A stretch of 64,000 bases of DNA from a virus (IMGVR_UViG_3300027777_000031:25864-89863); one strand, 5' to 3'. Shown: positions 29,665 to 55,210, numbered from the stretch's first letter. Made by a program: numbers and translations. Notes: generated by a model from the letters alone, not told the origin.

Positions 29665-29731
29665 TATTTTCAATAATTTTAAGAACTTTATTTCTTCTAC
29701 AAAGATAATACTTTTATTTTAATATATCAAA

Positions 29732-29890: not shown

Positions 29891-29912
29891 AATTTTTATA
29901 ATTTAATGTTTG

Positions 29913-40343: not shown

Positions 40344-40344
40344 C

Positions 40345-40674: not shown

Positions 40675-40707
40675 AATTAAATAATTTTAGGGGACAAAGA
40701 TATGGAA

Positions 40708-41650: not shown

Positions 41651-41725
41651 ATTATTTTTTTACAAAGATAAACATTTTTTTTTAATAAAAATAGTATTTT
41701 ACATTTTTTCCATATATTTATATAT

Positions 41726-42572: not shown

Positions 42573-43202
42573 TTCATCCGTGTGGTGGTCAAATAACATA
42601 TCCGACGCAATCTCACGTTTATCCATTATTCGTATAATATCATCCATATCATACACACCAAACGTTGGGTGACCATCCATACCAACGTCCATTTTTTTAC
42701 CTTTACCAAACCTTAAATTTGTTGGGAGATGTACGTGCCCGTGAAGTTGGATATGTCCTTTATTTAATCCATCCCAACTCGTTACAGGATAGTGAAATAA
42801 AACAAATGTTTTGAATTTATACATCAATTTTGTGTAGTGACTAACACTTGTAAATAATTCTTGTACATTCTCTCTATTTTTTTCTATGCTTGTATCGTGA
42901 TTTCCCAATATAAGGTGAATCTCTTTACACAAAATTCTATCTCTAAACTTTTGAATGTTTTCCACACCAGAAAAACTCCAATCCCCAAGATGAATTAACA
43001 CATCGTCTTGTCCAACAACACTATTAATGTTATTGACGATTGTTTCGTTCATCTGTTCTATTGTATTAAAATCTCTTGTTTGAGATATTGGAACACTTCC
43101 ATCAGGAAGACGCCATTCGGTCACTCCTCTACAAATATTTTTGTGTGCGAAATGTGAATCTGAGCACACCCACACTTTTCTATCTTTTTCTATCTTAATC
43201 AT
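42552..43202 (-). CDS. Calcineurin-like metallophosphoesterase
   Basis: SDSH, LGD, GNHD, HGHVH motifs. Confidence 0.85.
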   Translation of the reverse strand: MIKIEKDRKVWVCSDSHFAHKNICRGVTEWRLPDGSVPISQTRDFNTIEQMNETIVNNINSVVGQDDVLIHLGDWSFSGVENIQKFRDRILCKEIHLILGNHDTSIEKNRENVQELFTSVSHYTKLMYKFKTFVLFHYPVTSWDGLNKGHIQLHGHVHLPTNLRFGKGKKMDVGMDGHPTFGVYDMDDIIRIMDKREIASDMLFDHHTDELKGVVG

Positions 43203-43692
43203 ACTGCAAATCTAATTCTTTTTTTCCAAACCAAAAAGGTTTTTCTCTGTTTTTCCAAGATGCCAAACTAATTTTTGCACCCATATAATAATTTCTATAA
43301 GATTCCACAACAGAATCTACCTTAAACTCATCCGGCATCGCTCTCGCCGGAGTGGTAAAACCAATGTCCGGAATGTTAGGTCTATTTACAATACACCATT
43401 CAATCACCTCAATTGATTTGTGTCGTTTACCATACCTGTGGGTATATTCCTTACCTAATTCCAATCCCAATTCACACAAGTACAAATAATTTGATAAACT
43501 CTGACGAGCCCATACCGCACAAGGATGATTCTTATGTGACAACTTGTAGGGTACTTGGGGGGTAACTTGGGGGGTCGTGTGATGAACCGAACATAATAAC
43601 TGAGCCGTTTCCAAAATCATTTTAACTACGTGTTTATCTACGTGGTATCTTGCCGACAATGTCGGATTCTCATCTAAGAAAAATATATTCAT
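43195..43692 (-). CDS. Pyrimidine-dimer DNA glycosylase / DenV-related family protein
   Basis: MNIFFLD, DKHVVKMILETAQLL, HKNHPCAVW, EYTHRYGKRH. Confidence 0.65.
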   Translation of the reverse strand: MNIFFLDENPTLSARYHVDKHVVKMILETAQLLCSVHHTTPQVTPQVPYKLSHKNHPCAVWARQSLSNYLYLCELGLELGKEYTHRYGKRHKSIEVIEWCIVNRPNIPDIGFTTPARAMPDEFKVDSVVESYRNYYMGAKISLASWKNREKPFWFGKKELDLQYD

Positions 43693-44141
43693 TATACGTG
43701 TGGTATTTGGACTCTCACACAAGTTTGTGCTTGACCCTCGTTCATTAAAAAATTGTTACAAAAACCCATTATATTACTCGCCCCGATTGGATTAGCCGAA
43801 TGAACATACACAATTGGAAACACAAATTTATGAGCTTTTCTTTCACTTCGTGTCATATTAAATCGTTCTTCATTTGTGTTGTGAAATAACGATACCAAAA
43901 ACTTTATAGCATCATAACCGGTTTTTTCGTGAATATTATTATAATCCAAAGTGTAATTTGGTGAAACATTATCAAAATATTCTTTCATTGCTGTATCACC
44001 CAAATCGTGGTCTAAGGAAATAATATCAATATTACCCAACCCAAGTTCATTAACTTTATCTACGAATTCATCGTAATTTCTTACGACAATCCAATTATCT
44101 CCGGTGGGAGTTCTTACGTCATCTAAATAAATTCTATACAT
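43692..44141 (-). CDS. Cyclic-phosphate-processing receiver domain protein
   Basis: IYLDDVR, ISLDHDLG, TGYD, VHSANPIG. Confidence 0.75.
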   Translation of the reverse strand: MYRIYLDDVRTPTGDNWIVVRNYDEFVDKVNELGLGNIDIISLDHDLGDTAMKEYFDNVSPNYTLDYNNIHEKTGYDAIKFLVSLFHNTNEERFNMTRSERKAHKFVFPIVYVHSANPIGASNIMGFCNNFLMNEGQAQTCVRVQIPHV

Positions 44142-44244
44142 ATCTCTTAATTTTGCTACAAAGATAATCAAATATTTGAAATAAAAAAATCCATCACGAA
44201 AAAAATGATGGATTTAATTTGAAACCTTGTTATTTGTTTATTTT

Positions 44245-45105
44245 TTAGAATTTGTTCCCACAAGAAGAACAAAATTTATCGGAATCTTTTTTTCTTTTTT
44301 TTCCGCAGTTAGTACAATACACTTTTAAGTCTTGTTTTTCAAAAACCTTTTGTGACACCGGAAGAATCTTCCATATAGATGTTGCACAAGTATAATGGTT
44401 AAAAGTTTTATCCACAGTTTTGAAAGATTGGTCAGATGAACCACCTTTTTCAACCCTACCTGTTTCAATAGAATTTTCACTATTATCTATTAAAGAATCC
44501 ATAGTAACTTCACTACGAGAATTACCTTTAGATTTTTTTGCACTTCGTAAATTTGGTCCCGCAAAAGTATTACTTGATGCCGTATTAAAACTAATACCTC
44601 CTGTATTAGATGTTGATGTAAAATTTAAATTTGTTGATGGTACCGAACCATTACTTACATAACCCCCCGTTACATTATAACTATTATAAGTGTTACAAGT
44701 TGGTATACCAAATGAACCCCCAATATAAGTTATAGGGTTATTCCACACCGGTTGTTTATATTCATCAAAGAAGTCAATAACAACATCCCCATTTCCGGCG
44801 ATGGCATCCAATACCTCATTTGATGTTCCATCAACCTCATAAGTTTCAAACTTAAATTTACGAGCGTCGTCAAGGTATCTTTCAAGAAATACTCTTTGTC
44901 CCGGTTTAAGAACAATTCCTCCTCCGGAGATATAACTTCCGTCAAGTTTGATTTTCGCTAATACTGTGGTTGATGAGGGGTTAAATAATTCTAGTTCAAA
45001 TTCTTCCCCGTTGTTTAGATAGACAGTTTGTCCAAATTGTTTAAGACGTTTTCTGTCTTTTGTGATATACGCACAAGGCGTACCTGTTTTTGTTTGGTAA
45101 TACAT
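44245..45105 (-). CDS. Hypothetical protein with C-terminal zinc ribbon
   Basis: CTNCG...CSSCG at the C-terminus. Confidence 0.7.
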   Translation of the reverse strand: MYYQTKTGTPCAYITKDRKRLKQFGQTVYLNNGEEFELELFNPSSTTVLAKIKLDGSYISGGGIVLKPGQRVFLERYLDDARKFKFETYEVDGTSNEVLDAIAGNGDVVIDFFDEYKQPVWNNPITYIGGSFGIPTCNTYNSYNVTGGYVSNGSVPSTNLNFTSTSNTGGISFNTASSNTFAGPNLRSAKKSKGNSRSEVTMDSLIDNSENSIETGRVEKGGSSDQSFKTVDKTFNHYTCATSIWKILPVSQKVFEKQDLKVYCTNCGKKRKKDSDKFCSSCGNKF

Positions 45106-45277
45106 AATTTCCTTATTTTATTTTTTATGTTTATTGAACTTCTCTTCGTTGGTATCAATTCCAACTCAAATGCCTCTGTGGACACGAGAACCTCAGCAAC
45201 AAGGTTTCATTTATAAATATAAGGATACTTTATTTTGTTGTAAATAAAAAACCCCCAAGTTTCATTGGAGGTTGTTG

Positions 45278-45349
45278 TGGCCTCGGGGAATCACGATATC
45301 CCAACCTTTTCGTTATGAGCGAACTGCTCCACCTTTGAGCTACGAGACC
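45278..45349 (-). tRNA. tRNA-CAT (probably Ile2; Met not excluded)
   Basis: Cloverleaf, loop CTCATAA, atypical T-loop ATCGTGA. Confidence 0.75.
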
Positions 45350-45388
45350 AATTATGGGTTTTTAATGAACCCACAAACATATGTCAAC

Positions 45389-45619
45389 TTATTGGTGGTG
45401 TTTCACATACCTACCAAATTTATCAACCCTCACAGAGAGTTTCTCCAATCTAAAGTTCCATTGTTTGAACTTTCCTAAGCCCGATTTAATTCGTGCTTGT
45501 TTAATCGCAGATTCCTCTGCCTTCTCACGTCCTTCTTCCGTAGTTTCTACGAAAAAAGTGGGAGCCTGAACACCGTTATAAACGGGGACTACTCTCCAAA
45601 TTCTCAATTTCTGAGTCAT
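45389..45619 (-). CDS. Hypothetical protein preceded by a uORF and hairpin
   Basis: 76 aa ORF. Confidence 0.6.
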   Translation of the reverse strand: MTQKLRIWRVVPVYNGVQAPTFFVETTEEGREKAEESAIKQARIKSGLGKFKQWNFRLEKLSVRVDKFGRYVKHHQ

Positions 45620-45688
45620 AATACTTGAATAATCAAGTACTACGTGGAGTTGGGTTGGTTGTTTTTCATATTAGTAAATATTATTCAG

Positions 45689-45773
45689 TATCCGGAAAGG
45701 GACTTGAACCCTCAATTTCTCTTCAGAAAACTAGATTTTAAGTCTAGCGTGTATACCATTCCACCACCCGGAT
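45689..45773 (-). tRNA. tRNA-Leu(TAA)
   Basis: CTAGA-CTTAAAA-TCTAG; long variable arm. Confidence 0.9.
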
Positions 45774-45999
45774 GTTTGGAAAAACTGATGAACACGTTAT
45801 CCATCTTTGACTTGAGTTAGTCGTTACCGTTTTTCCGTTTTTTTTGAGAGATTTCCCATTGAAGTAATGTCAATCTCGTCCTAAACCAAACCATACTTTC
45901 TTTTAAGGATAAGAAACTTCTAACTACCTATTTGATGCCACTGACTTTTCTTAACTACAAAAAACAGACTCACAAACTGAACCCCGAAAAAACGACTCG

Positions 46000-46116
46000 T
46001 GGATAGAGTAGGATTCGAACCTACAATAGTACCATACTTTTTCACCTGCCGGTTACTTCAAGGACTCGAACCTCATATTCCGATGCCTCGGACGCTTTAC
46101 CATTTACCACCTACCC
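46000..46116 (-). ncRNA. tRNA-like RNA with two T-arms
   Basis: GGGTAGG/TCTATCC acceptor, TCCGA-GGCA-TCGGA hairpin, two GGTTCGA.TCC arms. Confidence 0.6.
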
Positions 46117-46122
46117 ATTTTG

Positions 46123-46196
46123 AGCTTCCTGTCAGAATCGAACTGACTCTATTCCGGGTTACAAATCCGGTGCACCACCATTCGTGCGTAGGAAGC
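46123..46196 (-). tRNA. tRNA-Thr(TGT)
   Basis: Loop TTTGTAA, cloverleaf. Confidence 0.85.
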
Positions 46197-46351
46197 CTGT
46201 CGCAGAGCATTTTTTTTAAGTAGAAGTCAGCTCTGTCTCTTAAACTACTATTTTAACATCATCACTTCGGCCACATTGGGAGAACCGCAGTTCCCACGTT
46301 GTTTAAGGAGGTAGTTGGCGGTGTATCACACCGAGTTATGATAATGTATTG

Positions 46352-46424
46352 TACCTCAGGAGGGAATCGAACCCTCAAAATCTTGTTCCTAAGACAAGCG
46401 TGTCTACCGTTCCACCACCAAGGC
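46352..46424 (-). tRNA. tRNA-Leu(TAG), short variable loop
   Basis: CTTGT-CTTAGGA-ACAAG. Confidence 0.85.
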
Positions 46425-46432
46425 AATTGTTG

Positions 46433-46504
46433 TACCCTCAATAGGACTCGAACCTATATCAAAACATTAGAAGTGTCTTATTCTATCCCTTGAACTATGA
46501 AGGC
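46433..46504 (-). tRNA. tRNA-Arg(TCT)
   Basis: Loop CTTCTAA. Confidence 0.88.
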
Positions 46505-46511
46505 AATTTTG

Positions 46512-46585
46512 AGTAACTAGCCGGTCTCGAACCGGCCTTATTCCACATTGGAAGTGTGGTGCCATACCTACTAGGCGATAGTTAC
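46512..46585 (-). tRNA. tRNA-Gly(TCC)
   Basis: CCACA-CTTCCAA-TGTGG. Confidence 0.88.
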
Positions 46586-46634
46586 ATTTTAAACTTATAC
46601 CTTGAAAATAAATTTAAATTTTAAATCTATAAGT

Positions 46635-46808
46635 TTATACTTTTGTTTTAAGAGTTTCAATCTCTTTGTTGATTCTCTTCTTATCAGAATCAGTTAATGG
46701 AACTTTCACATCTCGTGTCCCTTTTTCGGTTTTTAAACCATTTTTTAATTGTTTCTCCAACATTTCAAGAACTCTTTGTTGTCTTGACCTTTTTGCTGCT
46801 GTTGCCAT
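46635..46808 (-). CDS. Small basic protein (57 aa)
   Basis: Manual translation MATAAKRSRQQRVLEMLEKQLKNG...KRINKEIETLKTKV. Confidence 0.6.
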   Translation of the reverse strand: MATAAKRSRQQRVLEMLEKQLKNGLKTEKGTRDVKVPLTDSDKKRINKEIETLKTKV

Positions 46809-46831
46809 ACGGATTTAGTTATTAAATTAGT

Positions 46832-46903
46832 TGCAAATCTCAGGAATTGAACCTGATTAAGTCAGCTTATGAGACTGATGAGATACCTTACCTCCCGACT
46901 GCT
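46832..46903 (-). tRNA. tRNA-Met(CAT), bulged acceptor
   Basis: TCAGT-CTCATAA-GCTGA; T-arm TCAGG-TTCAATT-CCTGA. Confidence 0.7.
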
Positions 46904-46918
46904 GTGTATTCTTCTTTG

Positions 46919-46994
46919 TAGCGAAGTGCAGGTACCGCCCCTGCCTTATGTCAAGTTTATGAGACTTGCGGAAACTCTATGCCCCCCACTCGCG
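46919..46994 (-). tRNA. tRNA-Met(CAT), atypical
   Basis: CAAGT-CTCATAA-ACTTG; T-loop GGCGGTA; bulged acceptor. Confidence 0.6.
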
Positions 46995-46999
46995 ATGTA

Positions 47000-47668
47000 T
47001 TATTTTTCGTAATTTTTTTTCCATTTTCTAATAGTATTATCACTAACACCATATTTTTTTCCACACCCTCTATAACCTAAAGAATTAATTTCATCAATCA
47101 ATTGAAAGTAATTAGGTCTCTCAACTTTACGTTGTTTAATTTGAGAACATTTAACACAATTTTTATTTTTTTCAAAAGTTGGATTACCACATTCACATTT
47201 ATGAATAACTTTATCAAGATGTTTCACATTTCTACCTCCGTGAGTAGGTAATCCTGCATTACAGTTAGGACAAACAATTCTTAAATTTTCAATTCTATTG
47301 TCATTATTAACACCATTTATATGGTCTAAAATTAAACTAATTTTATTACCCATCCAATTTTCATCTTGACCACAAATTTCACAACATTTTTGTTTTAATT
47401 CTTCTTTGTAAAGTCTCTCTTTCAAAATAGTTGTATTTAAGTATAATGAATTTTCAACTAAAATATCAACTAATTCTATTTTTTTCTTACCTTTACCACC
47501 GGATGATGTTAGTCTAAAATGATTTGTCGGAATTTCAAATAGATTAATATATTTTTTAACTGTTTGTCTATTACCATAAAATGGTTGTAAACCTAATTTC
47601 TTTGTTACTTCCGAATAATTGTTAGATGAATTAACAATCTTTTCTAAAATTTCTTTTGAATATCTCAT
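47000..47668 (-). CDS. HNH endonuclease within the tRNA array
   Basis: CEICG, LDHINGVNNDNRIENLRIVCPNCN, C-terminal HTH. Confidence 0.85.
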   Translation of the reverse strand: MRYSKEILEKIVNSSNNYSEVTKKLGLQPFYGNRQTVKKYINLFEIPTNHFRLTSSGGKGKKKIELVDILVENSLYLNTTILKERLYKEELKQKCCEICGQDENWMGNKISLILDHINGVNNDNRIENLRIVCPNCNAGLPTHGGRNVKHLDKVIHKCECGNPTFEKNKNCVKCSQIKQRKVERPNYFQLIDEINSLGYRGCGKKYGVSDNTIRKWKKNYEK

Positions 47669-47733
47669 AATCTGTCTTTTATTATAAATATCTCGAACTC
47701 TTAAAAAGTGACAGAAATTTATATTTTTTTTTG

Positions 47734-47809
47734 CGGTCCCGGAGGGTTTCGAACCCTCATTTTAGAGCAGTGACAGTGCAATTCCCCTACCAATGGGGCT
47801 CACAAGACC
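47734..47809 (-). tRNA. tRNA-Asp(GTC)
   Basis: Loop CTGTCAC. Confidence 0.8.
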
Positions 47810-47908
47810 AAAATTTCAATTCAAAGGTGACAATCCTATAACAATTGAAGGAGAAAGAACCGTGTTTCCCGGGTAGTGACTTCCCGTATTCTGTCTTTCT
47901 GTTTTTTG

Positions 47909-47980
47909 TGGAGATATAGGGAATTGAACCCTAATTTACGATTTGCAAAACCATTGTAATAGCCGTTATACTATATCCCC
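47909..47980 (-). tRNA. tRNA-Ala(TGC)
   Basis: G3.U70 pair, loop TTTGCAA. Confidence 0.9.
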
Positions 47981-47985
47981 AATTG

Positions 47986-48057
47986 TAGCCCCACCGGGAG
48001 TCGAACCCGACTTTTTTGGATGAAAACCAAATGTCCTAACCGATAGACGATAGGGCC
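47986..48057 (-). tRNA. tRNA-Glu(TTC)
   Basis: TTTGG-TTTTCAT-CCAAA. Confidence 0.9.
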
Positions 48058-48102
48058 GTTTTATATTACCAATACGTCAATTAACTTGTTTCAGTTTGAT
48101 GG

Positions 48103-48356
48103 TACAAAGATAATACTTTATTTCATTATACCAAACTTTTTTTATCCTTCTCTATCCTCAATAGAAAACCCTGCACTATCGTATTCAGGTCCTTGGTCTT
48201 CTTCCGGAGTGACATTTACCAATCCGTATGTTACACCTAAAATGGGAGAATATTCCATCCCTAACTCTTCATTCATCGTTTTTTTGTCCGACATAATAAT
48301 TACATTTTTAATTCGTTACAAAGATAATACTTTATTTCATTATACCAAACTTTTTT
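48103..48356 (-). repeat. 40-nt direct repeat containing the promoter, flanking a 50-aa acidic ORF
   Basis: TACAAAGATAATACTTTATTTCATTATACCAAACTTTTTT at 48103-48142 and 48317-48356; ORF MSDKKTMNEELG...IEDREG between them. Confidence 0.8.
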
Positions 48357-48357
48357 A

Positions 48358-48393
48358 CAAAAAAAAATCCACCTTTTTTGAAGATGGATTTTT
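48358..48393 (-). terminator. Attenuator terminator upstream of tRNA array 2
   Basis: AATCCATCTT-loop-AAGGTGGATT followed by a T tract. Confidence 0.75.
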
Positions 48394-48419
48394 GAATATT
48401 TTTTTTACTTAAATATATA

Positions 48420-48494
48420 TCATACCATCTGCTTCCAAGTTGTATCTCTACCCTCAGTTCCTGCTATCGTAAGTAATATGTTTAAAGTTTGCAT
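48420..48494 (-). CDS. Putative leader peptide 2, MQTLNILLTIAGTEGRDTTWKQMV
   Basis: 24 codons ending shortly before the terminator; codons match array 2 tRNAs. Confidence 0.7.
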   Translation of the reverse strand: MQTLNILLTIAGTEGRDTTWKQMV

Positions 48495-48566
48495 TTGTTG
48501 TGTTATTGTAATTTCTAATAAATATATACCTTTTTATAAAAGTGTCAAGTATTGGTAAGATTTATT

Positions 48567-48911
48567 TTAATTATCCCAAATATTTTTATCTTTATTCCTT
48601 TTAAGGGATTTTTTATATTCAATAACTTTCTTTGGATTTATGAATCGAACCCCATTATAAACGAACGAGTGATTATCAATTAAGTCATCAATATCGTATT
48701 TGGGCCAATTATTGAAAAATTCAATATCTTTGGTTCTATATTCACCTTCATCATTAAATTCCCATTTTGATGGTCGTATAATCACATCTAAGTCATTAAC
48801 ATCATCAATCATACCGGTGATTACTAATGGCGCGGAGCCAAAAACCGCATAATCCTCAGAATCTAAGTTATAGTCCTTGAGTTTATCCATTAAAAATTTA
48901 AAGTTTTTCAT
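48567..48911 (-). CDS. Small nucleotidyltransferase-like protein
   Basis: YAVFGSAPL...NDLDVII; C-terminal RNKD. Confidence 0.6.
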   Translation of the reverse strand: MKNFKFLMDKLKDYNLDSEDYAVFGSAPLVITGMIDDVNDLDVIIRPSKWEFNDEGEYRTKDIEFFNNWPKYDIDDLIDNHSFVYNGVRFINPKKVIEYKKSLKRNKDKNIWDN

Positions 48912-48930
48912 ATTGATAAATATAAAGAAA

Positions 48931-49126
48931 AAAGTTTAACAACCCCGCCCTCGGGTCGTAGCGGGCTACAATGGGAATTCCGGAATTGGTCGTGTTCCTC
49001 ACCGGCGTACCAGTCCTTATCTATCCTTTACCGTATTTCTACGGTGCTACTGTTGGGAGGTCACCCCTATCAACACGACTAGTCCATTAGTTTTTTAGAG
49101 TATGGACACCCCGGTTGTTAAACTTT
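48931..49126 (-). ncRNA. Putative structured RNA of about 195 nt
   Basis: 14-bp terminal inverted repeat AAAGTTTAACAACC/GGTTGTTAAACTTT; GC-rich internal hairpins; strand assumed. Confidence 0.55.
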
Positions 49127-49135
49127 TTATTTTAA

Positions 49136-49287
49136 AAAAACAGACAATGAGGATTCTCCGATATTTCAGTCTTAGGGGACTAGACGGGCATCATACCCGT
49201 GTTTACCCTCGGCGGTCTCTTGGTTTGATTGATTACTCCGAACCTCACCCCTACACTACCACTGACGTAAGTTATAGGTCTGTTTTT
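49136..49287 (-). ncRNA. Putative structured RNA of about 150 nt
   Basis: Terminal stem AAAAACAGAC/GTCTGTTTTT; internal ACGGG-CATCATA-CCCGT; strand assumed. Confidence 0.45.
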
Positions 49288-49357
49288 ATTTCTTCAGGAG
49301 AGACCCCCAAGGGATAACCATAACGGAATTACCCTTGACTCACTCTCCGTCTTCTTG

Positions 49358-49464
49358 CCCTTCCAGTGGGAATCGAACCCACATACTCTTAATACATTCT
49401 TGGGATGGTTACCGGAGGGAGATGTATTCGTCTCTGTGTTTTGCTCTTGTTAAACTACAGAAGG
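49358..49464 (-). ncRNA. tRNA-like RNA with expanded anticodon domain
   Basis: CCTTCTG/TGGAAGG acceptor, D-arm, T-arm GTGGG-TTCGATT-CCCAC; about 55 nt middle with an AATACAT/ATGTATT stem. Confidence 0.6.
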
Positions 49465-49470
49465 ATGTTG

Positions 49471-49542
49471 CACGCCGCCAAGGACTCGAACCCTGAACTT
49501 TGAGGTTGGAACTCAAAATGATAACCATTTCACCAACGACGC
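49471..49542 (-). tRNA. tRNA-Trp(CCA)
   Basis: TTGAG-TTCCAAC-CTCAA. Confidence 0.85.
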
Positions 49543-49593
49543 ATTTTACTGCTCAAATTTAAGACTATTTACTGCTCAAATTTAAGATTTTTG

Positions 49594-49663
49594 AGGTCTC
49601 GGTGGGAATCGAACCCACTCTGTAGATTTTGCAGACCTACCGGTCGCCACGACCATCAAGACC
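49594..49663 (-). tRNA. tRNA-Cys(GCA)
   Basis: Loop CTGCAAA, U73. Confidence 0.85.
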
Positions 49664-49735
49664 ATTTTAAAAAAACACCCGACCTGACCTGCCAGATATT
49701 ACGTGTCGTAGCGCTTTCGTTACGTAGCGGGTGTT

Positions 49736-50596
49736 TTATTTTACAACAATAAATTTTGTTTTTGGGTTCTCATTTATTTTATCATAAGGAACCACATTCT
49801 CAATTCGTTTATTGGCTATCTTAACATATTCTTCACTAATATCAATTCCTATAAAATTACGATTATTCAACTTAGACATTTTGGATGTTGTCCCGGAACC
49901 AACCATAGGGTCAAGAACAATATCACCCTCATTAGACCAACTCAATATATGGTCTTCAACAAGTTCTTCCGGAAATATTGCAGGATGTTCAAATGCGAAC
50001 GAATCTTTAGTTGAATAATTTTTACCAGTATTATATTGCCAAACATTATATCTATTACCATATTCCGCAATTGTGAAATCCGGCATTTCTTTTAATTCAC
50101 CATCTTTGGTCCTCATAACCCGTTTCCCAAAATTAGAATAACCTGCCCATTTGTTTTTTTTATCTTTCAATAGATTCACCGTTTTTGGTTTTCCTTTAGA
50201 AAATACAAACATATATTCAAAAACTTGAGAATAACGTTTTTTTTCGGGAAAAGGAGCTCCATTTTTCATATAAATCATTGTATCATACAATGTAAATCCT
50301 TGAGACATAAATCCTAATGCTTGTCTAAATGAACTCCCTGTTTCACCACCATTCTTTACTTGGTCACCAACAACCCATACGACAATACCACCATCTTTTG
50401 TGATTCTATATAATTCCGATACCATAGATTCAAAATCAAAACTAAAACCGGTTTCTTTAACTCCCGTAATTTTATTGTTATACGTTCTAAGATTATCGTA
50501 TGGTGGAGACGTAACAGTTAAGTCAACGTAATCATTTTGTATTTCCTTTACAATTTCAATAAAATCGCCAGTTGTGTTGTTATTTAATAATCTCAT
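49736..50596 (-). CDS. N6-adenine/N4-cytosine DNA methyltransferase (beta class)
   Basis: TSPPY precedes HPAIFP and DPMVGSGTT. Confidence 0.9.
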   Translation of the reverse strand: MRLLNNNTTGDFIEIVKEIQNDYVDLTVTSPPYDNLRTYNNKITGVKETGFSFDFESMVSELYRITKDGGIVVWVVGDQVKNGGETGSSFRQALGFMSQGFTLYDTMIYMKNGAPFPEKKRYSQVFEYMFVFSKGKPKTVNLLKDKKNKWAGYSNFGKRVMRTKDGELKEMPDFTIAEYGNRYNVWQYNTGKNYSTKDSFAFEHPAIFPEELVEDHILSWSNEGDIVLDPMVGSGTTSKMSKLNNRNFIGIDISEEYVKIANKRIENVVPYDKINENPKTKFIVVK

Positions 50597-51266
50597 AATT
50601 TACCGGGTTTAACTCTAAGTGATATATTTTTTGTTTAGGAATCACCCCTCCTTTAATTATACAGTTTTCTGTTAGATTATCAATGGACCAATCAGACATT
50701 CTAAAATCAAATGATGTTCTGTGACTATTATCTTTAGCATTTCCACTCCATTTATGTGAACCTAAATCAAATATTCCGGCAAACACTCCACTAAATAAAC
50801 CGTTATTGTTTGTTAACGATAACTTTTTTTCTCTATCAATTTTAAAATTAATTAATAAAAAATTATCAACTTTAGATGTTGATGAAGTTGAACCCTGCCA
50901 AGAATTATCATTTTGACTTAATTTAATCTCCAAGTAATATTTTTCATTAGTAGTAATATCAATAAAAACTAAATCATAACTTTTAACTATATTTGATTCT
51001 CTTTTTAAAACAACCCTTAAAAAAGATTTTTGGGACTCCAAATAATCGTTTAAATTGTACTTTAAAAAGGTATAAAAACTGTGAGACATTTGTGCCGTTA
51101 ATTGTGTGCCAATTTGATTAACCTCTTCTAAATCATAAAACTCATTAAGAGATTCATTGTTTTTACAAGCCCCGTAAAATTGTTGAACAATTAAATTGTT
51201 CTCTATGTGCAAAAACGCATAGTCCACAAAATTAACTCTTTTTAATTCATTTATTACTTTTTTCAT
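50580..51266 (-). CDS. Putative PD-(D/E)XK restriction endonuclease
   Basis: YDLVF...YLEIKLS; overlaps the methyltransferase start. Confidence 0.5.
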   Translation of the reverse strand: MKKVINELKRVNFVDYAFLHIENNLIVQQFYGACKNNESLNEFYDLEEVNQIGTQLTAQMSHSFYTFLKYNLNDYLESQKSFLRVVLKRESNIVKSYDLVFIDITTNEKYYLEIKLSQNDNSWQGSTSSTSKVDNFLLINFKIDREKKLSLTNNNGLFSGVFAGIFDLGSHKWSGNAKDNSHRTSFDFRMSDWSIDNLTENCIIKGGVIPKQKIYHLELNPVNYEIIK

Positions 51267-51318
51267 AGTTATTTATTTTTCAACAAAGATACAACTATTT
51301 TTTAATCTGCCAAAATTT

Positions 51319-51828
51319 TTAGAAAAATAAATATGGTTCCCACTCTTTTGGAATTTCGTGATGAACCTGTTTCATCAACATCAAATAGTGTGGTCGTCTT
51401 GGCTGTGGAATTTCCTTACCATACTCTTCCAAAGTCAAATTTGACTTCTCACTATTACATTTTCTACAAGCCGTAACCAAGTTGTCCCAAGAATCTTTCC
51501 CCCCCTTAGATTGGGGGATTACGTGGTCTAATGTCAATGTCTTTCTATTACTATCACCACAATACACACACTCAAAGTTATCTCTACGATAAACATTCTC
51601 TCGACTTAAAGGAACTTTTTGAATTACCTGATTCACATATTTATAAACCCGGATAATTGATGGTTTTTTGATATCCAATTCAGGATTCACTAATTTAAAT
51701 GATTCCGGATGTTCGTGGACGATGTCGGCATTACCTTTATAAGAAATGACGAAAGCCCTCTCTGTGGATATAATACTCCTTGCCATAAAACTTGAATCCA
51801 AAACCAAAGTTTTTTGGTACTTACTCAC
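51319..51828 (-). CDS. HNH endonuclease (McrA-like)
   Basis: RDNFECVYCG, TLDHVIPQSKGG, NLVTACRKCNSEK. Confidence 0.88.
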   Translation of the reverse strand: MSKYQKTLVLDSSFMARSIISTERAFVISYKGNADIVHEHPESFKLVNPELDIKKPSIIRVYKYVNQVIQKVPLSRENVYRRDNFECVYCGDSNRKTLTLDHVIPQSKGGKDSWDNLVTACRKCNSEKSNLTLEEYGKEIPQPRRPHYLMLMKQVHHEIPKEWEPYLFF

Positions 51829-51862
51829 GACTTTTGATTTTTTAATTAAACATTCTTTTTTG

Positions 51863-51934
51863 TGACCCCGGAGAATTTCGAAATCTCGACTCCCAAGTTA
51901 AAAGCTTGGTACTCTACCGCTGAGTTACGAGGTC
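51863..51934 (-). tRNA. tRNA-Lys(TTT)
   Basis: CCAAG-CTTTTAA-CTTGG. Confidence 0.9.
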
Positions 51935-52018
51935 AATATTGAGCTCATTTTGTTTTGTTATTTGGCTCAAATTATAAGTAATTTGAGCTTAATAATCAAA
52001 CTCTATGAGCCACATTTG

Positions 52019-52092
52019 TAGGTGGTATGAGACTCGAACTCATAACCTCTTCGGTATCAGCGAAGGACTCCAACCAATTGAGCTAACCACCT
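52019..52092 (-). tRNA. tRNA-Ile(GAT)
   Basis: CTTCG-CTGATAC-CGAAG. Confidence 0.9.
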
Positions 52093-52156
52093 AAAATCTA
52101 ATTCTACGCTTCCCCCATACTGTTAGGGTTCTATAAATTAGTAACAATCTCCCTCG

Positions 52157-52229
52157 TCGAGAATGTACGATTCGAACGTCTCCTCATACGTCCAAGGTAT
52201 GAATGCAGCCTGGTTACACCTCATTCTCG
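52157..52229 (-). tRNA. tRNA-Pro(TGG)
   Basis: CATAC-CTTGGAC-GTATG. Confidence 0.8.
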
Positions 52230-52232
52230 TTT

Positions 52233-52415
52233 TTAACTTATTTTTAATTTTCCTGAACGATAATCTTCTTGCATTTGTCGTATTCTTTCGTCTCTTTTTT
52301 CAATACTCTTTTTTATCCTTTCAATTTTTTCAGGACTTGGGTTAGAATCAATTGTATAAACTACCCCCATTTCATCTAATTCTTTTAAGAATTCTTTTGT
52401 TTCAAATTTTTTCAT
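52233..52415 (-). CDS. Hypothetical protein (60 aa)
   Basis: Start MKKFETKEF; lies between two tRNAs. Confidence 0.55.
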   Translation of the reverse strand: MKKFETKEFLKELDEMGVVYTIDSNPSPEKIERIKKSIEKRDERIRQMQEDYRSGKLKIS

Positions 52416-52429
52416 AACATTATGTTTTG

Positions 52430-52515
52430 CGGAGAGCAGAATACTCGAAATCCATCCATTTAACCGAACCACTCGCTTAGCAGGCGGTGACAATACCCTG
52501 ATTGTTTTACTCTCC
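52430..52515 (-). tRNA. tRNA-Ser(GCT)
   Basis: GGAGAG acceptor, loop CTGCTAA, long variable arm, G73. Confidence 0.8.
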
Positions 52516-52521
52516 ATTTTG

Positions 52522-52594
52522 TGTCTCCAGCAGGAGTCGAACCCACATCATCTAGTCCGTAGCCAGACGTTTTATCCAATTAAACTATGGAGAC
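52522..52594 (-). tRNA. tRNA-Arg(ACG)
   Basis: TCTGG-CTACGGA-CTAGA. Confidence 0.88.
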
Positions 52595-52600
52595 ATTTTG

Positions 52601-52706
52601 TAGTCAGGACAGGACTTGAACCTGTACTGCCGGGAATTCAAATAGGAGCGATTAACACTATTCCCCAATTTACCTATTTTAGCGTTTACCATTCCGCCAC
52701 CTGACC
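52601..52706 (-). ncRNA. tRNA-like RNA, same family as 29913-29985
   Basis: GGTCAGGTGGCGGAATGGTAAACGC...ACAGGTTCAAGTCCTGTCCTGACT with a longer, unrelated middle. Confidence 0.6.
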
Positions 52707-52801
52707 AATTTGAGGTTGAGAACTCCTCTGTGTTATTCTTTACTGTTTGTTGCAACAACCTTGTAGCCACTCTATATCCTTTCTCAAGGGAACAACACAT
52801 T

Positions 52802-52990
52802 TTACTTCCATTGAGTTTTTCGGTTATACTTCCAAGTTTTATGTTCTCTGTATTTGTGAGAAAATTGTCCTTTTCTGTAATGAACACCCTCATCCCAATA
52901 AGATGGGTATTCAAACTTTAACCAAATCAATCTGTAATCTTTGGAACAAGTTGCCTTGTTCAATTTCATTCTGTTTGTGTTTACACTCAT
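52802..52990 (-). CDS. Small basic aromatic protein preceded by a uORF and hairpin
   Basis: MSVNTNRMKLNK...TWKYNRKTQWK. Confidence 0.6.
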   Translation of the reverse strand: MSVNTNRMKLNKATCSKDYRLIWLKFEYPSYWDEGVHYRKGQFSHKYREHKTWKYNRKTQWK

Positions 52991-53059
52991 AATCTCTGAG
53001 CCCATTGTTTAGTGGACCTCAAAGATTGTCTAATACTTTTTTCATAATATTTTAATTTT

Positions 53060-53132
53060 GGGTGTTAGGACGGTACCGCCCCGTCTTCTTTGGTTCCACA
53101 AACCAACGCTTCACTAAAAAGCTTCAAACACC
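53060..53132 (-). tRNA. tRNA-His(GTG)
   Basis: TTGGT-TTGTGGA-ACCAA; T-loop GGCGGTA. Confidence 0.8.
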
Positions 53133-53208
53133 ATATTACCCCACTTCACCGGCTTAACGGACCGGCTGCCATATGGGAGTGGGGGTTTCCTGTTATATCA
53201 GGACTCCG

Positions 53209-53280
53209 CGGACTTGGGGAATTTCGAAATCCCGACCCTTCACTTAACAGGCGAACGCTCTTCCTCTGAGCTACAAGTCC
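53209..53280 (-). tRNA. tRNA-Asn(GTT)
   Basis: Loop CTGTTAA. Confidence 0.88.
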
Positions 53281-53430
53281 AATTTTGACCACTATGTTAT
53301 TTTGCGAACGTATGAAGCTCGTATCATTATTAAATCATAGTAGTCCAAGGCGTTACGCATCCGTCTGTAACTTTACTTTTCTTGAGTCCCGATGTGGCCA
53401 CATCAACTCTGGGAACGATTACCTTGTTTG

Positions 53431-53503
53431 TGGGGATTACAGGTTACGCTCCTGTCTCTTTGATTCTTCAGACCAACGCTTTCACTAGATTAGCTTAATC
53501 CCC
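53431..53503 (-). tRNA. tRNA-Phe(GAA)
   Basis: Loop CTGAAGA; T-loop AGCGTAA. Confidence 0.8.
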
Positions 53504-53646
53504 AATTAAAATGATGGTGAGATACCCGTTTCGTCTCACTCTTGACTGCTTAATAGTAGTTTTACTGTGCACAGGCAGAGGGTTATAATTTCGTTTGTTG
53601 TAATCAGAATTGTCGACATTCTTTCATACTGAAATTCATCATTTTG

Positions 53647-53727
53647 TGGGACACTATGGAATCGAACCATACCCTACTACAGAACGGTGTTACAGACCGC
53701 TTATCACACCAGTGACTGAAGCATCCC
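53647..53727 (-). tRNA. tRNA-Tyr(GTA)
   Basis: GCGGT-CTGTAAC-ACCGT; long variable arm. Confidence 0.82.
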
Positions 53728-53777
53728 AATTAATTTATTCTATTTCACACTACCGGACTTTATCAGGATGTGGTTTT

Positions 53778-53846
53778 TACCTTGCAGGACTTGAACCTGC
53801 GTCTTATCGGCTCCCGCCGATTGTTCCACCAACCGCAACTAAAGGT
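53778..53846 (-). ncRNA. tRNA-like domain with 5-bp acceptor and tetraloop anticodon arm
   Basis: ACCTT/AAGGT, ATCGGC-GGGA-GCCGAT, GCAGG-TTCAAGT-CCTGC. Confidence 0.5.
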
Positions 53847-53858
53847 TGAATAAATTTG

Positions 53859-53929
53859 TACCCCGAGATGGAATTGAACCACCACCATTTGTATGTAAGA
53901 CAAATACGCTTCCATTACGCCATCGGGGC
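53859..53929 (-). tRNA. tRNA-Val(TAC)
   Basis: TTTGT-CTTACAT-ACAAA. Confidence 0.88.
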
Positions 53930-53935
53930 AAATTG

Positions 53936-54003
53936 TACCGAGAAATGGTAACGCTCCATTCTATAGTCGGATATGAGCCGTCTATGGTCCTTGACCTCTC
54001 GAT
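53936..54003 (-). tRNA. tRNA-Met(CAT), reduced D-arm
   Basis: Loop CTCATAT; T-loop AGCGTTA. Confidence 0.55.
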
Positions 54004-54058
54004 GTTTTTGGTGGACATAGATTCATCACCTACTCTTGGGTTTCCACCGAACCCTTCG

Positions 54059-54130
54059 TTACCCCTGAGAGAATCGAACTCCCCCCGCGTGGACCAAAAC
54101 CACGTGTACTAACCGATATACGAAGGGGCA
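54059..54130 (-). tRNA. tRNA-Gln(TTG)
   Basis: CGTGG-TTTTGGT-CCACG; U1-A72. Confidence 0.88.
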
Positions 54131-54232
54131 AAATATTTTTTAGTTAAAGAACGGTTACCACAATTACGTTCGCCCCGGACTCTACTCCGGACATTCTTTT
54201 TTGGGTGTGGATTAAACTATTTAACTAACCCG

Positions 54233-54320
54233 CGGAAGGAGTGGGACTCGAACCCACACGTGTGTTACCACCAACGGTTTTCAAGACCGCGACCCGTAGA
54301 CCGACTTGGCTTACCCTTCC
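54233..54320 (-). tRNA. tRNA-Ser(TGA)
   Basis: GCGGT-CTTGAAA-ACCGT; long variable arm. Confidence 0.88.
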
Positions 54321-54409
54321 ATTTTTTCTTACCAATATTTCAAATAACTTGTTCCTTTATTTTGATGGGACAAAGGTAATCCTTTTTTTCTAACTTCCAA
54401 TTTTTTTAT

Positions 54410-54443
54410 AAAAAAAAATCCTGAACTTTTTGAGTTCAGGATT
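54410..54443 (-). terminator. Attenuator terminator upstream of tRNA array 1
   Basis: AATCCTGAACT-CAAAA-AGTTCAGGATT followed by a T tract. Confidence 0.8.
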
Positions 54444-54467
54444 CTTATTATATGTTATGATTAATTT

Positions 54468-54590
54468 TTATTCAAAAATAATATCACTTAATAAATCAGC
54501 TGAACTTGTATGCGAAATACGCGGATACGAACAATTACTAAATTGTTGGTTCCAAATTGAGACATTCATATGTTTATTAGTGTTTTTCAT
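54468..54590 (-). CDS. Putative leader peptide 1, MKNTNKHMNVSIWNQQFSNCSYPRISHTSSADLLSDIIFE
   Basis: 40 codons between promoter TAAGTTTG (54638-54645) and the terminator; codons match array 1 tRNAs. Confidence 0.72.
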   Translation of the reverse strand: MKNTNKHMNVSIWNQQFSNCSYPRISHTSSADLLSDIIFE

Positions 54591-54679
54591 TTTTCTTTTT
54601 TTTGTGGTATTTCTACCTGTGTTTCTTATAACTATCACAAACTTACGAAAAGTTTAATAAAAGTCAAATATTTTTTTTA

Positions 54680-54946
54680 TTATACCAATCTTTTTGCGAT
54701 ATCGGTAATTCTATTTTCATCTTCAGGTGATAACAAATGTCTTGAATCTCTGAGTTTCACTAATGACTCCCACCACTCATCATCTAATAGAGTGTTGTGA
54801 ATGTTTGTGGGTTTAACTTGTCCGTTGAATGAATCTAAATGACCTTCTTCAACAAGAGCCTCAATTAACTCTTTAACTTCTCTATTGGAACACGCTGAGA
54901 TATAGTCCCAAGCATCAATATCAATTTCTGTACTAAAATCTGGCAT
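54680..54946 (-). CDS. Hypothetical protein
   Basis: 88 aa ORF. Confidence 0.65.
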   Translation of the reverse strand: MPDFSTEIDIDAWDYISACSNREVKELIEALVEEGHLDSFNGQVKPTNIHNTLLDDEWWESLVKLRDSRHLLSPEDENRITDIAKRLV

Positions 54947-54949
54947 AAT

Positions 54950-55210
54950 TTATAAATTTTCTAATCTGTTAATAATTTTTGTTACTTCTTCTTTTGAATT
55001 CCACCCTAAAACATCATTACCGTCTTCCATTGGTACAAACTTACCAAGTGTTTTGTAGAATGCAGCGACTTCAAATGAAGTTGTTCCATTTCCGTATAAA
55101 CCTTCACCACCAACAACAGAAACTTCAATATCGTTTCCTAAGTCCAATCTTGCTTGAACTCCGTTACGTATTACGTGTGGTTTAAATACTAAATCATCAA
55201 ATGTTTTCAT
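54950..55210 (-). CDS. Hypothetical protein
   Basis: MKTFDDLVF...GLYG..FEVA; promoter at 55215-55222. Confidence 0.7.
   Translation of the reverse strand: MKTFDDLVFKPHVIRNGVQARLDLGNDIEVSVVGGEGLYGNGTTSFEVAAFYKTLGKFVPMEDGNDVLGWNSKEEVTKIINRLENL

Follow-up and report, generated by a model that had tools for sequence, protein, structure and literature searches.

Two tRNA blocks on the minus strand

The locus lies in an uncultured, lake-derived giant phage with a Bacteroidota-type host, analysed here as a stretch of 64,000 nucleotides (hereafter the 64-kb window). Every feature described below, leaders, terminators and tRNA blocks alike, is carried by the minus strand. The phage encodes 24 standard tRNA genes and 4 odd tRNA-like elements (53775–53849, 52598–52706, 49355–49464 and 45999–46116), arranged in two blocks; a sequence-only reading of the same DNA had counted 26 tRNAs, a figure that falls between the 24 standard genes and the 28 obtained with the odd elements. 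ARAGORN with default settings reports 20 tRNAs from 54320 to 45277, relaxed settings add Pro-TGG (52156–52229), Ser-GCT (52429–52515) and Phe-GAA (53430–53503), and Rfam together with folding adds a CAT tRNA at 46832–46902.

Block 1 (49470–54320) contains genes for Ser-TGA, Gln, Val, Tyr, Phe, Asn, His, Arg-ACG, Ser-GCT, Pro, Ile-GAT, Lys, Cys and Trp. Two of the odd elements lie inside it and a third, at 49355–49464, just beyond its end. Block 2 (45277–48057) contains Glu, Ala, Asp, CAT (46832–46902), Gly, Arg-TCT, Leu-TAG, Thr-TGT, Leu-TAA and a second CAT gene (45277–45349), along with one odd element, and is closed by a terminator at 45273–45250. The anticodon sets, 14 species in block 1 (54320–49470) and 10 in block 2 (48057–45277), have no overlap. 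Two co-oriented arrays with disjoint anticodons had been proposed from the sequence, with CAT as the one anticodon common to both; the first part holds, but both CAT genes belong to block 2, and in this phage no CAT gene appears in block 1 even with ARAGORN at -ps70. Several relatives do have a Met-CAT gene in block 1. Nor are the two blocks pure arrays: block 1 is interrupted by an HNH gene (51319–51828), a 228-aa ORF and a DNA methylase gene (49736–50596), and block 2 by another HNH gene (47000–47668), with small ORFs among the interruptions as well. Just downstream lie genes for RNA ligase 1, a P-loop kinase, a phosphoesterase and a cyclic-phosphate-processing domain, which we count as supporting context.

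A leader module in front of each block

Both blocks are headed by a promoter, a short ORF and a strong intrinsic terminator, in the order first noticed from the sequence. Starting upstream of block 1, a promoter of the Bacteroidota type, TTTG-N19-TAAGTTTG (54638–54668), was found by pattern match and is conserved in leader-1 alignments. The pattern, whose -7 box consensus was taken from the accessible part of PMC7641319, has 17 matches in the 64-kb window against 2.66 expected. The predicted leader 1 ORF (54468–54590) has 40 codons and a stop, encodes MKNTNKHMNVSIWNQQFSNCSYPRISHTSSADLLSDIIFE and has no Pfam family; codons 2–27 are its presumed sensing part. Within the ORF, RNAalifold predicts a hairpin, AACAATT-TAGT-AATTGTT (54530–54547), which is possibly a pause hairpin. 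Five of its seven pairs are unchanged in the alignment and two are altered on one side only, and the core recurs in type B relatives and in locus L057; the pattern used to find relatives fixed the last 16 nt of this hairpin, so its invariance across those loci is partly ascertainment. Codons 29–33 hold a candidate antiterminator strand, AGTTCAG..GATT (54494–54506), complementary to the 5′ arm of terminator 1, a conserved intrinsic terminator with a 14-pair stem (54414–54446) and a T-run reaching to about 54405. Between terminator 1 and tRNA-Ser lie a second promoter-like box, TTG-N19-TACCTTTG (54371–54400), and, directly before the first tRNA, a conserved box (54329–54353). The motif of this last box occurs just twice in the 64-kb window, once ahead of each block.

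The leader 2 module is more compact. Its promoter, TTG-N19-TATATTTA (48519–48548), which a sigma-70 scan also scores as TTGACA-16-TATATT, keeps its position across aligned variants. The predicted ORF (48420–48494; 24 codons and a stop, MQTLNILLTIAGTEGRDTTWKQMV) keeps its frame in type B, which has lost 3 nt in frame, and in L159, which has gained one codon. By complementarity, AGATGG (48430–48425) in the final codons pairs with CCATCT in the 5′ arm of terminator 2, and the stop codon lies three bases past this antiterminator strand. Terminator 2 (48363–48393) is an intrinsic terminator of 13 pairs with a T-run, and its 5′ arm, AAATCCATCTTC, is unchanged in 19 aligned variants despite a diverged spacer. 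From terminator 2 to block 2, two promoter boxes (48349–48319 and 48135–48105), which are 100% identical 36-nt copies, flank a 50-aa ORF (48294–48142). Locus L022 lacks this ORF and has its tRNA-Glu at +187. The second copy of the conserved pre-tRNA box lies at 48066–48090.

Leader codons match the tRNA block behind them

Each leader is largely written in codons read by its own block, as the sequence-only reading had held. After the start codon, 30 of 39 codons in leader 1 and 17 of 23 in leader 2 are own-block codons, and the match is concentrated early: 24/26 in codons 2–27 of leader 1, which sample all 14 block-1 species, and 16/18 in codons 2–19 of leader 2, which sample all 10 block-2 species. 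The split extends to isoacceptors, with CGT and ATT in leader 1 and AGA and ATA in leader 2. Over both leaders, the own block reads 47 of the 62 codons. When the 24 species were divided at random into groups of 14 and 10, 123 of 1,000,000 partitions reached 47/62 and the best seen was 48, a match above chance under a null of unstructured random partitions; this is not the sole possible null, and partitions structured by amino-acid type would be another. A Fisher test on the entire leader ORFs gives p = 1.4e-4. Control windows of 26 codons were drawn from 39 long ORFs; of 13,994 such windows, 4 contain as many as 24 block-1 codons, and the complete set of 14 species is seen in none. For leader 2, 16 block-2 codons never coincide with all 10 species in 14,306 control windows. 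The leaders lack tandem runs of regulatory codons, and every species occurs in them 1–5 times in scattered positions. In classical attenuators, such an arrangement would give little sensitivity to a partial shortage.

Competing pairings in the leader RNAs

In leader 1, the ORF segment covaries with the 5′ arm of the terminator at the expense of the terminator stem. In 4 of 20 sequences both partners of two antiterminator pairs, 164:245 and 165:244, are altered, a level reached by none of 500 shuffles, and the same arm changes convert terminator 1 pairs to G–U or unpaired cells. Over the alignment, 96% of antiterminator cells are paired, against at most 57% in slid controls. The covariation probably represents one or two events only. 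In type B, a different ORF segment, GGTT.GGG, fits a different arm, CCCTGAACC.

In both leaders, folding puts the antiterminator within reach of a ribosome that has come late into the ORF. When the nascent RNA is cut before the terminator 3′ arm, the antiterminator is part of the minimum-free-energy structure; in the folding calculations a ribosome footprint at codons 27–34 of leader 1 or 19–24 of leader 2 abolishes it, and a stall further upstream keeps it. Ribosome-free nascent leader 1 RNA likewise folds into the antiterminator, which is a point against the attenuator reading and leaves the default state uncertain. The leader 2 antiterminator has just 5–7 bp and its support comes from folding, the search pattern having fixed the antiterminator segment and so placed covariation there out of reach. 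Overall, covariation and folding for leader 1, and folding for leader 2, support an antiterminator and a terminator that are mutually exclusive and placed such that a ribosome could decide between them.

Leaders and blocks in related phages

Both modules recur across dozens of related giant-phage contigs. Leader 1 DNA was found in all five relatives' genomes searched, and 40 loci yielded 22 distinct intact ORFs, counted as nucleotide variants; the leader 2 pattern was matched in 37 contigs. Wherever a tRNA was called behind leader 2, the nearest one is Glu or Asp. The upstream flank of leader 1 is variable, and the module stays joined to the tRNAs. In L084 and L115 the order of the blocks is swapped, block 2 and its own leader 2 variant preceding leader 1 and block 1, and each leader keeps to its own block through the exchange.

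Tyrosine offers a finer view of the same association. In type B, the Tyr-GTA gene sits behind leader 2, which carries Tyr at position 6; in leader 1 of these phages Tyr is confined to codon 27, adjoining the antiterminator strand. In type A the arrangement is reversed. The Tyr gene and the Tyr codon thus appear to have moved together between leaders, in one relocation event. Covariation of leader codons with block content, put forward for testing in the sequence-only reading, is seen in this case but not throughout. The block present at L057 supplies a cognate gene for 13 of the 26 sensing codons. The type B leader 2 has 11 block-2-type codons out of 16 and includes Lys, His or Arg, Asn and Pro codons, and Arg codons are missing from the type B leader 1, whose block does carry Arg-ACG. 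Among 20 changes of tRNA species in leader 1 codons 2–27, 14 lead to another own-block codon and 6 do not, a share not clearly above the 55% background.

These exceptions bear on a reading in which the leaders are real attenuators that respond to translation as a whole, for instance to how many ribosomes are available or to their coupling with RNA polymerase, and not to single tRNA species, and in which the codon match is a by-product, for example of leaders shaped for fast reading by phage tRNAs. The missing tandem codon runs, the leader kept at L057 by a block lacking many cognate genes and the loosely confined substitutions all fit such a sensor, as does the Anabaena tRNA array, which answers general translational stress according to the accessible parts of PMC8421152 and PMC10272220. 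It gives no reason, however, for the two leaders to divide 24 species as the blocks do, nor for a Tyr codon to change leaders with its gene, and we regard it as unlikely.

Against drifting flanks, many leader codons show no nucleotide changes, a pattern also compatible with a trans-acting main product, either the leader peptide or the terminated leader RNA, as with rnTrpL/peTrpL of Sinorhizobium, for which control of the tRNA genes would be secondary. Attenuator products with roles in trans are described in the accessible portions of PMC6614838 and PMC7298713. The leader peptides match no family, however, the C-terminal third of leader 1 is free to vary, and a role in trans leaves the codon partition unexplained; we consider this reading very improbable.

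Promoter-like boxes behind the terminators

In this phage a promoter-like box follows each terminator, and therefore the blocks need not depend on read-through. A second promoter box was matched by regular expression in 16 of 21 distinct leader 1 variants. Four of the 21 (L044, L160, L084 and L115) have no promoter match between terminator 1 and the first tRNA, which are 28–40 nt apart, and in some relatives read-through appears to be the sole route into the tRNA genes. In addition, a metatranscriptome contig of 276 nt covers 54401–54676 and ends at terminator 1, a weak piece of evidence drawn from contigs only.

The downstream boxes and the contig that stops at the terminator would equally suit short ORFs or RNAs that are independent mini-genes ending at ordinary terminators, with the blocks driven only by the promoters behind them and the codon match coincidental. 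Against this stand the four variants without a promoter, a terminator arm that covaries with the ORF segment while weakening its own stem, modules that follow their blocks through rearrangement, and partition statistics that speak against coincidence. We judge independent mini-genes to be quite unlikely.

A proposed attenuation mechanism

We propose that a transcription attenuator of the ribosome-mediated, leader-peptide kind stands before each tRNA block and gates read-through into it, an interpretation of the sequences that we hold to be probable. The sequence-only reading had suggested attenuators of the trp/his type matched to the block behind. Conservation of the modules, the swapped blocks, the promoter-less variants, the compensatory change and folding support that proposal, but the match is imperfect in relatives.

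In the proposed mechanism, smooth translation would bring the ribosome to the last third of the ORF (codon 27 onward in leader 1, codon 19 onward in leader 2), where it would mask the antiterminator strand; the terminator would then form and the transcript would end. Where a cognate tRNA is scarce, the ribosome would stall earlier and the antiterminator would form first, allowing RNA polymerase to enter the tRNA genes and replenish exactly the sampled species. Put simply, the phage probably raises its tRNA output whenever a shortage brings ribosomes to a halt. In this phage, such read-through would add to transcription from the second promoter-like box behind each terminator. Candidate natural triggers are host tRNA decay, codon demand and a tRNA-cleaving defence. 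Stalling on tRNA loss, the ensuing rise in read-through and a purpose directed against anticodon nucleases are steps that we infer.

Comparison with known systems

Leader-peptide attenuators are familiar from enterobacterial amino-acid operons, including the multivalent leaders of thr and ilvGMEDA, and also trp, his, leu and phe. The phage modules share with them a promoter, a short leader ORF, an intrinsic terminator, an antiterminator strand that a late ribosome could mask, and leader codons that relate to supply from the downstream genes. As opposed to the enterobacterial systems, the regulated genes here are tRNA genes and not genes for biosynthetic enzymes, and each leader inventories 10–14 tRNA species with 1–5 codons apiece in place of runs of one to three amino acids. 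The phage modules are also phage-borne, divide the code between two leaders over two blocks and, in this phage, have an extra promoter behind the terminator. T-box riboswitches likewise let tRNA status govern a choice between terminator and antiterminator, but they do so by direct binding of uncharged tRNA and without an ORF; Rfam scans of the region returned no T-box match at E up to 1 or up to 10, and this class was rejected. Membership of the Rfam family Thr_leader (RF00506) was rejected as well, as the match (54410–54467) scores 29.7 bits, short of the gathering threshold of 55, and falls almost wholly on the terminator hairpin and T-run. General descriptions of leader-peptide attenuators are given in the accessible parts of PMC1183508 and PMC3082878.

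The nearest published system that we found is the repressor-controlled tRNA array of Anabaena sp. PCC 7120. In the accessible parts of PMC8421152 and PMC10272220, this trn L-array, with about 26 spare tRNA genes, is induced under translational stress, and thus its expression, as proposed for the phage blocks, follows impaired translation; both have RNA repair genes associated with them (rtcB there, Rnl1 and kinase genes here). In contrast to the leader attenuators proposed here, it is controlled through direct repeats in its promoter, bound by the repressor TrcR, and it is a cyanobacterial chromosomal or plasmid array, not a phage one. The available text of PMC8421152 does not contain the words attenuat-, leader or terminator.

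Phage tRNAs have also been described as an escape from tRNA-cleaving defences, among them PrrC/RloC, retron effectors and PARIS (PMC10264068, PMC11555353, PMC11464382 and PMC2610378, in their accessible parts). There, as may be the case here, phage-encoded tRNAs replace host tRNAs, and phage tRNA repair enzymes counter anticodon nucleases; neither the term 'transcription attenuation' nor a sensing switch was found in the accessible text of the literature matched on this subject. The arrangement had been put forward as one without prior description, and the literature searched yielded no published account of it.

Possible implications for tRNA-rich phages

On a broader and more tentative reading, which we think somewhat doubtful, the two leaders would form a two-channel, codon-by-codon gauge of decoding capacity, in which the loss of any of 24 species, for example through a host anticodon nuclease or through decay of host tRNAs driven by the phage, would stall a ribosome in the leader that matches it and so switch on exactly the replacement block. 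Such a gauge would work with the adjacent RNA ligase, kinase and phosphoesterase as a layered system of repair and replacement, and would be widespread in tRNA-rich phages.

Two tRNA blocks on one strand

The tRNA genes of the window fall into two blocks, on the minus strand throughout, and the observation that a codon-matched leader heads each of them is confirmed with small corrections. With default settings, ARAGORN finds 20 tRNAs from 54320 to 45277; relaxed settings recover Pro-TGG, Ser-GCT and Phe-GAA as well, and Rfam together with folding adds a CAT tRNA at 46832–46902. The total, put at 26 by the sequence-only reading, is 24 standard genes plus four odd tRNA-like elements. Block 1 (54320–49470, minus strand) holds 14 anticodon species and block 2 (48057–45277, minus strand) holds 10, with no species in common. 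The Met (CAT) tRNA previously placed in block 1 is absent even at a very lax threshold, and both CAT genes lie in block 2. The odd elements (53775–53849, 52598–52706, 49355–49464 and 45999–46116, minus strand) possess T-arms, but their anticodon regions are abnormal, containing a tetraloop, long insertions or a pair of T-arm-like hairpins; the type found at 53775–53849 is also present in the relatives' loci L028, L030 and L036.

Both blocks are interrupted, by two HNH endonuclease genes and an N6/N4 DNA methylase gene (47000–47668, 51319–51828 and 49736–50596, minus strand) and by small ORFs. Among relatives, block content and spacing are highly variable, and extra copies of Pro, Leu-TAA and Gln genes sit in the 'wrong' block; together with the endonuclease genes, this variability fits turnover driven by homing endonucleases. 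A 94-aa ORF at 52233–52517 (minus strand) overlaps the Ser-GCT tRNA gene (52429–52515) and is probably not a gene. Two more tRNA genes, Thr-GGT and Tyr-GTA, lie 15 kb from the blocks (29483–29985, minus strand), with a promoter-pattern match between them at 29700–29731. Directly downstream of block 2 is an RNA repair gene set (39318–44171, minus strand), with a T4-type RNA ligase 1 (PF09511, 1.7e-18), an AAA_33 P-loop kinase-like protein, a metallophosphoesterase and a cyclic-phosphate-processing receiver domain (PF20274, 2.5e-18).

Architecture of the block heads

The proposed order of promoter, short ORF and intrinsic terminator is found before both blocks, on the minus strand. Leader 1, the short ORF heading block 1, has a promoter of Bacteroidota type (TTTG-N19-TAAGTTTG, 54668–54638), including what we take to be its −33 element. 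Its 40 codons (54590–54468) are preceded by an A-rich 5′ region and followed by the 14-pair terminator 1 (54446–54414). Leader 2, which heads block 2, consists of a promoter (TTG-N19-TATATTTA, 48548–48519), an ORF of 24 codons (48494–48420) and the 13-pair terminator 2 (48393–48363). In the window's phage, another promoter-like box lies downstream of each terminator. The −7 box consensus used for the leader 1 promoter follows PMC7641319.

The first tRNA of each block is abutted by a box of approximately 25 nt (54329–54353 and 48066–48090, minus strand) with the sequence AACAAGTTA.TTGA..TATTGGTAA; within the 64 kb, the motif derived from it occurs at these two sites only. It may be a processing or processive-antitermination signal and is reminiscent of boxA-type elements. 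Related boxes precede the first tRNA in relatives, including the promoterless L044, L084 and L057. Between terminator 2 and tRNA-Glu (48105–48349, minus strand), a 50-aa ORF (48294–48142) stands between two 36-nt promoter boxes that are 100% identical; the ORF is missing in the relative L022 and present as a diverged version in relatives L004–L010. The arrangement resembles the insertion of a small gene cassette in which the promoter was duplicated.

Neither leader peptide matches a Pfam family, nor do the flanking ORFs of 88, 114, 50 and 76 aa, and Rfam finds nothing over the region beyond the tRNAs, chance-level matches and a sub-threshold Thr_leader match that falls almost wholly on the terminator hairpin and T-run. 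Membership of the Thr_leader family is excluded, the match being below threshold, and the Rfam scans exclude the T-box family.

Leader codons match their own blocks beyond chance

Each sense codon was assigned to the tRNA species that reads it, with U34 reading whole family boxes and one CAT gene taken as Ile2. Own-block codons make up 30 of the 39 codons after the start in leader 1 and 17 of 23 in leader 2. The match is densest in codons 2–27 of leader 1 (24/26, covering all 14 species) and codons 2–19 of leader 2 (16/18, covering all 10 species). The block-1 share in a background of 39 long ORFs is 0.548. Fisher's test gives p=1.4e-4 for the whole leader ORFs and 4.9e-8 for the sensing parts delimited by the sequence-only reading, the boundaries of which were chosen post hoc. 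Of the control windows, 13,994 were 26 codons long; 24 block-1 codons are attained in 4 of these, and the full set of 14 species in none. Another 14,306 were 18 codons long: 47 reach 16 block-2 codons and 43 contain 10 species, with no window doing both. When the 24 species are re-dealt 14/10 at random, without structure by amino-acid type, and the leaders are kept fixed, 123 of 1,000,000 partitions reach the observed 47/62 (best 48). By a hand count from the species lists, every species of a block is sampled by its sensing part, for both blocks at once, in only 6 of 1,961,256 partitions. By permutation and by control windows, the match of each short ORF to its own array exceeds chance.

Source, host and conservation of the modules

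The window lies within an 89.9-kb uncultured-virus fragment that is approximately 30% complete; the relatives are phages of 280–320 kb, sampled from fresh water and other aquatic habitats. Nothing matches in 50,697 phage records, whether 45000–55000 is searched by megablast, the leader-1 unit by blastn or the neighbouring 1000-aa protein by tblastn, leaving no cultured relative in that collection. The Bacteroidota-type promoter pattern TTTG-N18-20-TAnnTTTG matches 17 times in the window, against 2.66 expected (0/100 shuffles as high), and this enrichment points to a Bacteroidota host. The genome G006 (281 kb), from a more distant relative, has just 5 tRNA matches and no match to the leader-2 pattern, and was dropped as a comparator.

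Leader-1 DNA is present in all five relatives' genomes searched. A 24-nt anchor from the second promoter retrieves 16 contigs, all with the module and with differing upstream sequence, and a 16-nt core pattern retrieves 110 stretches, reduced to 30 loci by a filter for a short ORF in frame and a tRNA no more than 600 nt away; taken together, these give 22 distinct intact ORF sequences from 40 loci. The leader-2 pattern finds 37 contigs with 24 distinct variants, 22 of which were aligned, two short ones being left out. Wherever a tRNA is called downstream of leader 2, the first is Glu or Asp, with Cys/Trp mostly just upstream. The idea that the two-block split is arbitrary is rejected on this ground. 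Leader 2 occurs as two types, A and B, separated by an in-frame 3-nt deletion in type B and by numerous substitutions; start codon, stop codon and terminator arm are nonetheless preserved in type B.

In two IMG/VR contigs (L084 and L115) the block order is reversed: block 2 leads, headed by a leader-2 variant and terminator of its own, and behind it come leader 1 and block 1, the terminator of leader 1 lying 40 nt from tRNA-Pro. A promoter match is present in the 86–132-nt gap after the terminator in 16 of 21 distinct leader-1 variants, and one (L127) has a −7 box only. In the other four (the type-B L044 and L160, along with L084 and L115), the distance from terminator to first tRNA is 28–40 nt with no promoter match, so that on sequence grounds their tRNAs seem reachable only by read-through of the terminator.

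An alternative pairing between leader ORF and terminator

A segment of the leader-1 ORF, AGTTCAG and GATT separated by a 2-nt bulge (54506–54494), is complementary to the 5′ arm of terminator 1. Across 20 aligned variants, the two strands pair in 96.3% of cells, as opposed to at most 57% in a slid-partner control. Two of these antiterminator pairs change on both sides in four sequences (L025, L028, L032 and L057), a score that 0/500 shuffles reach, and the four probably represent one or two events only. The covarying arm changes leave the matching terminator pairs G-U or unpaired, and hence the arm has tracked the ORF segment rather than the 3′ strand of its stem. In type B the arm reads CCCTGAACC instead, and the ORF segment that matches it, GGTT.GGG at a similar position, likewise differs. 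For leader 2, the search pattern fixed the antiterminator strand, making its 37 contigs uninformative on covariation; two variants found by synteny (L084 and L159) are consistent with a GAGATGG/CCATCTC pairing but, at n=2, are too few to count. RNAalifold predicts a seg1:seg2 helix, with one covarying pair.

When the nascent leader-1 RNA is cut just before the terminator 3′ arm, the minimum-energy fold contains the antiterminator, extended by A/U-rich pairs of the ORF end with the spacer. Under a modelled ribosome footprint, this antiterminator is kept with the ribosome at codons 6–24 and lost at codons 27–34. The leader-2 fold contains a 6-bp AGAUGG:CCAUCU helix, kept with footprints at codons 3–17 and lost at 19–24, and the stop codon follows the helix by three bases. 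In these folding models, the geometry of both leaders is that of a trp-type switch. Contrary to that geometry, leader 1 folds into the antiterminator without any ribosome, and the leader-2 helix is short. Taken together, the reversed block order, the promoterless gaps and the alternative pairing speak for function in cis.

Four metatranscriptome runs cover parts of the region as contigs, which give no starts, ends, strand or level; uncovered stretches (for example 46555–47958 in X7) carry no meaning, and DNA may be present. One 276-nt contig matches 54401–54676 with zero differences and breaks off where terminator 1 ends, and contigs from two other runs span the terminator (54322–54471 and 54262–54441). 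Given how blind such contigs are to ends and strand, and the possible DNA, these are a weak hint of partial termination at terminator 1.

Leader codons and block content across relatives

The match of leader codons to array content holds where both blocks are well covered. Own-block codons account for 24 of leader-1 codons 2–27 in the window, 25 in L029, L030 and L115, 23 in L084 and 22 in L044 (each of 26), and for 14 of leader-2 codons 2–17 in the window, L029 and L030 and 12 in L084 (each of 16). The relocation of Tyr is, at the level of sequence comparison, informative. In type A, the Tyr gene is in block 1, with a Tyr codon at leader-1 position 22 and none in leader 2; in nine type-B loci with enough downstream sequence, Tyr-GTA lies behind leader 2, which has a Tyr codon at position 6, and the sole Tyr of type-B leader 1 is codon 27, adjoining the antiterminator strand.

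Other results stand against this reading. L057 retains codons for Asn, Ile, Val and Trp, and the AGT codon, with no such tRNA genes called in its block (13/26); the Arg codon is missing from it, as is the Arg-ACG gene. Type-B leader 2 contains Lys, His or Arg, Asn and Pro codons (block-2-type 11/16), and type-B leader 1 has no Arg codon though the Arg-ACG gene is in the block. Among 20 distinct species-switching changes in leader-1 codons 2–27, 14 are to own-block and 6 to other codons, not clearly above background, and this substitution analysis gives no support either way.

A candidate leader-peptide attenuator for tRNA genes

The reading of the modules as leader-peptide attenuators is well supported by comparison. 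The sequences show how the heads are built, that the modules are conserved together with their blocks, that an alternative pairing exists and that the codons are partitioned; a trigger by tRNA shortage and a purpose in defence are what we infer beyond this. In the proposed mechanism, both leaders would be translated by ribosomes. Smooth translation would destroy the antiterminator and let the terminator form, and a ribosome stalled at any sampled codon would leave the antiterminator intact. The polymerase would then enter the tRNA genes, supplementing their transcription in the window's phage and supplying it in some relatives. The RNA ligase 1, kinase, metallophosphoesterase and cyclic-phosphate-processing genes downstream make tRNA damage a plausible pressure on the system.

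The device belongs with leader-peptide attenuators, among which the multivalent thr and ilvGMEDA leaders come closest. It differs from these in its target, which is tRNA genes, in an inventory-like leader without codon runs, and in being phage-borne and pairing two leaders with two blocks. The nearest published idea that we found is the Anabaena trn array, which is reported to be silent until translation is impaired, with a repressor, TrcR, acting at the promoter and rtcB co-regulated (PMC8421152, PMC10272220); the terms attenuat-, leader and terminator do not appear in PMC8421152. In the literature searched, with most subscription journals outside its scope, attenuation of phage tRNA genes is undescribed, in line with the earlier statement that no description was known.

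How and why phages deploy tRNA genes has been debated for decades, and with a self-contained module of approximately 250 nt, the question becomes directly testable. If the mechanism holds, the switch would gauge decoding in the cell one codon at a time and respond with the tRNAs that match; it would provide a natural, compact sensor of individual tRNA availability, usable as a reporter, and would extend leader-peptide attenuation from enzyme genes to tRNAs. It may also bear, by a link that we infer, on phage counter-defence against tRNA-cleaving systems. For the phages themselves, it would mean that the supply of tRNAs is regulated by demand, beyond mere expression.
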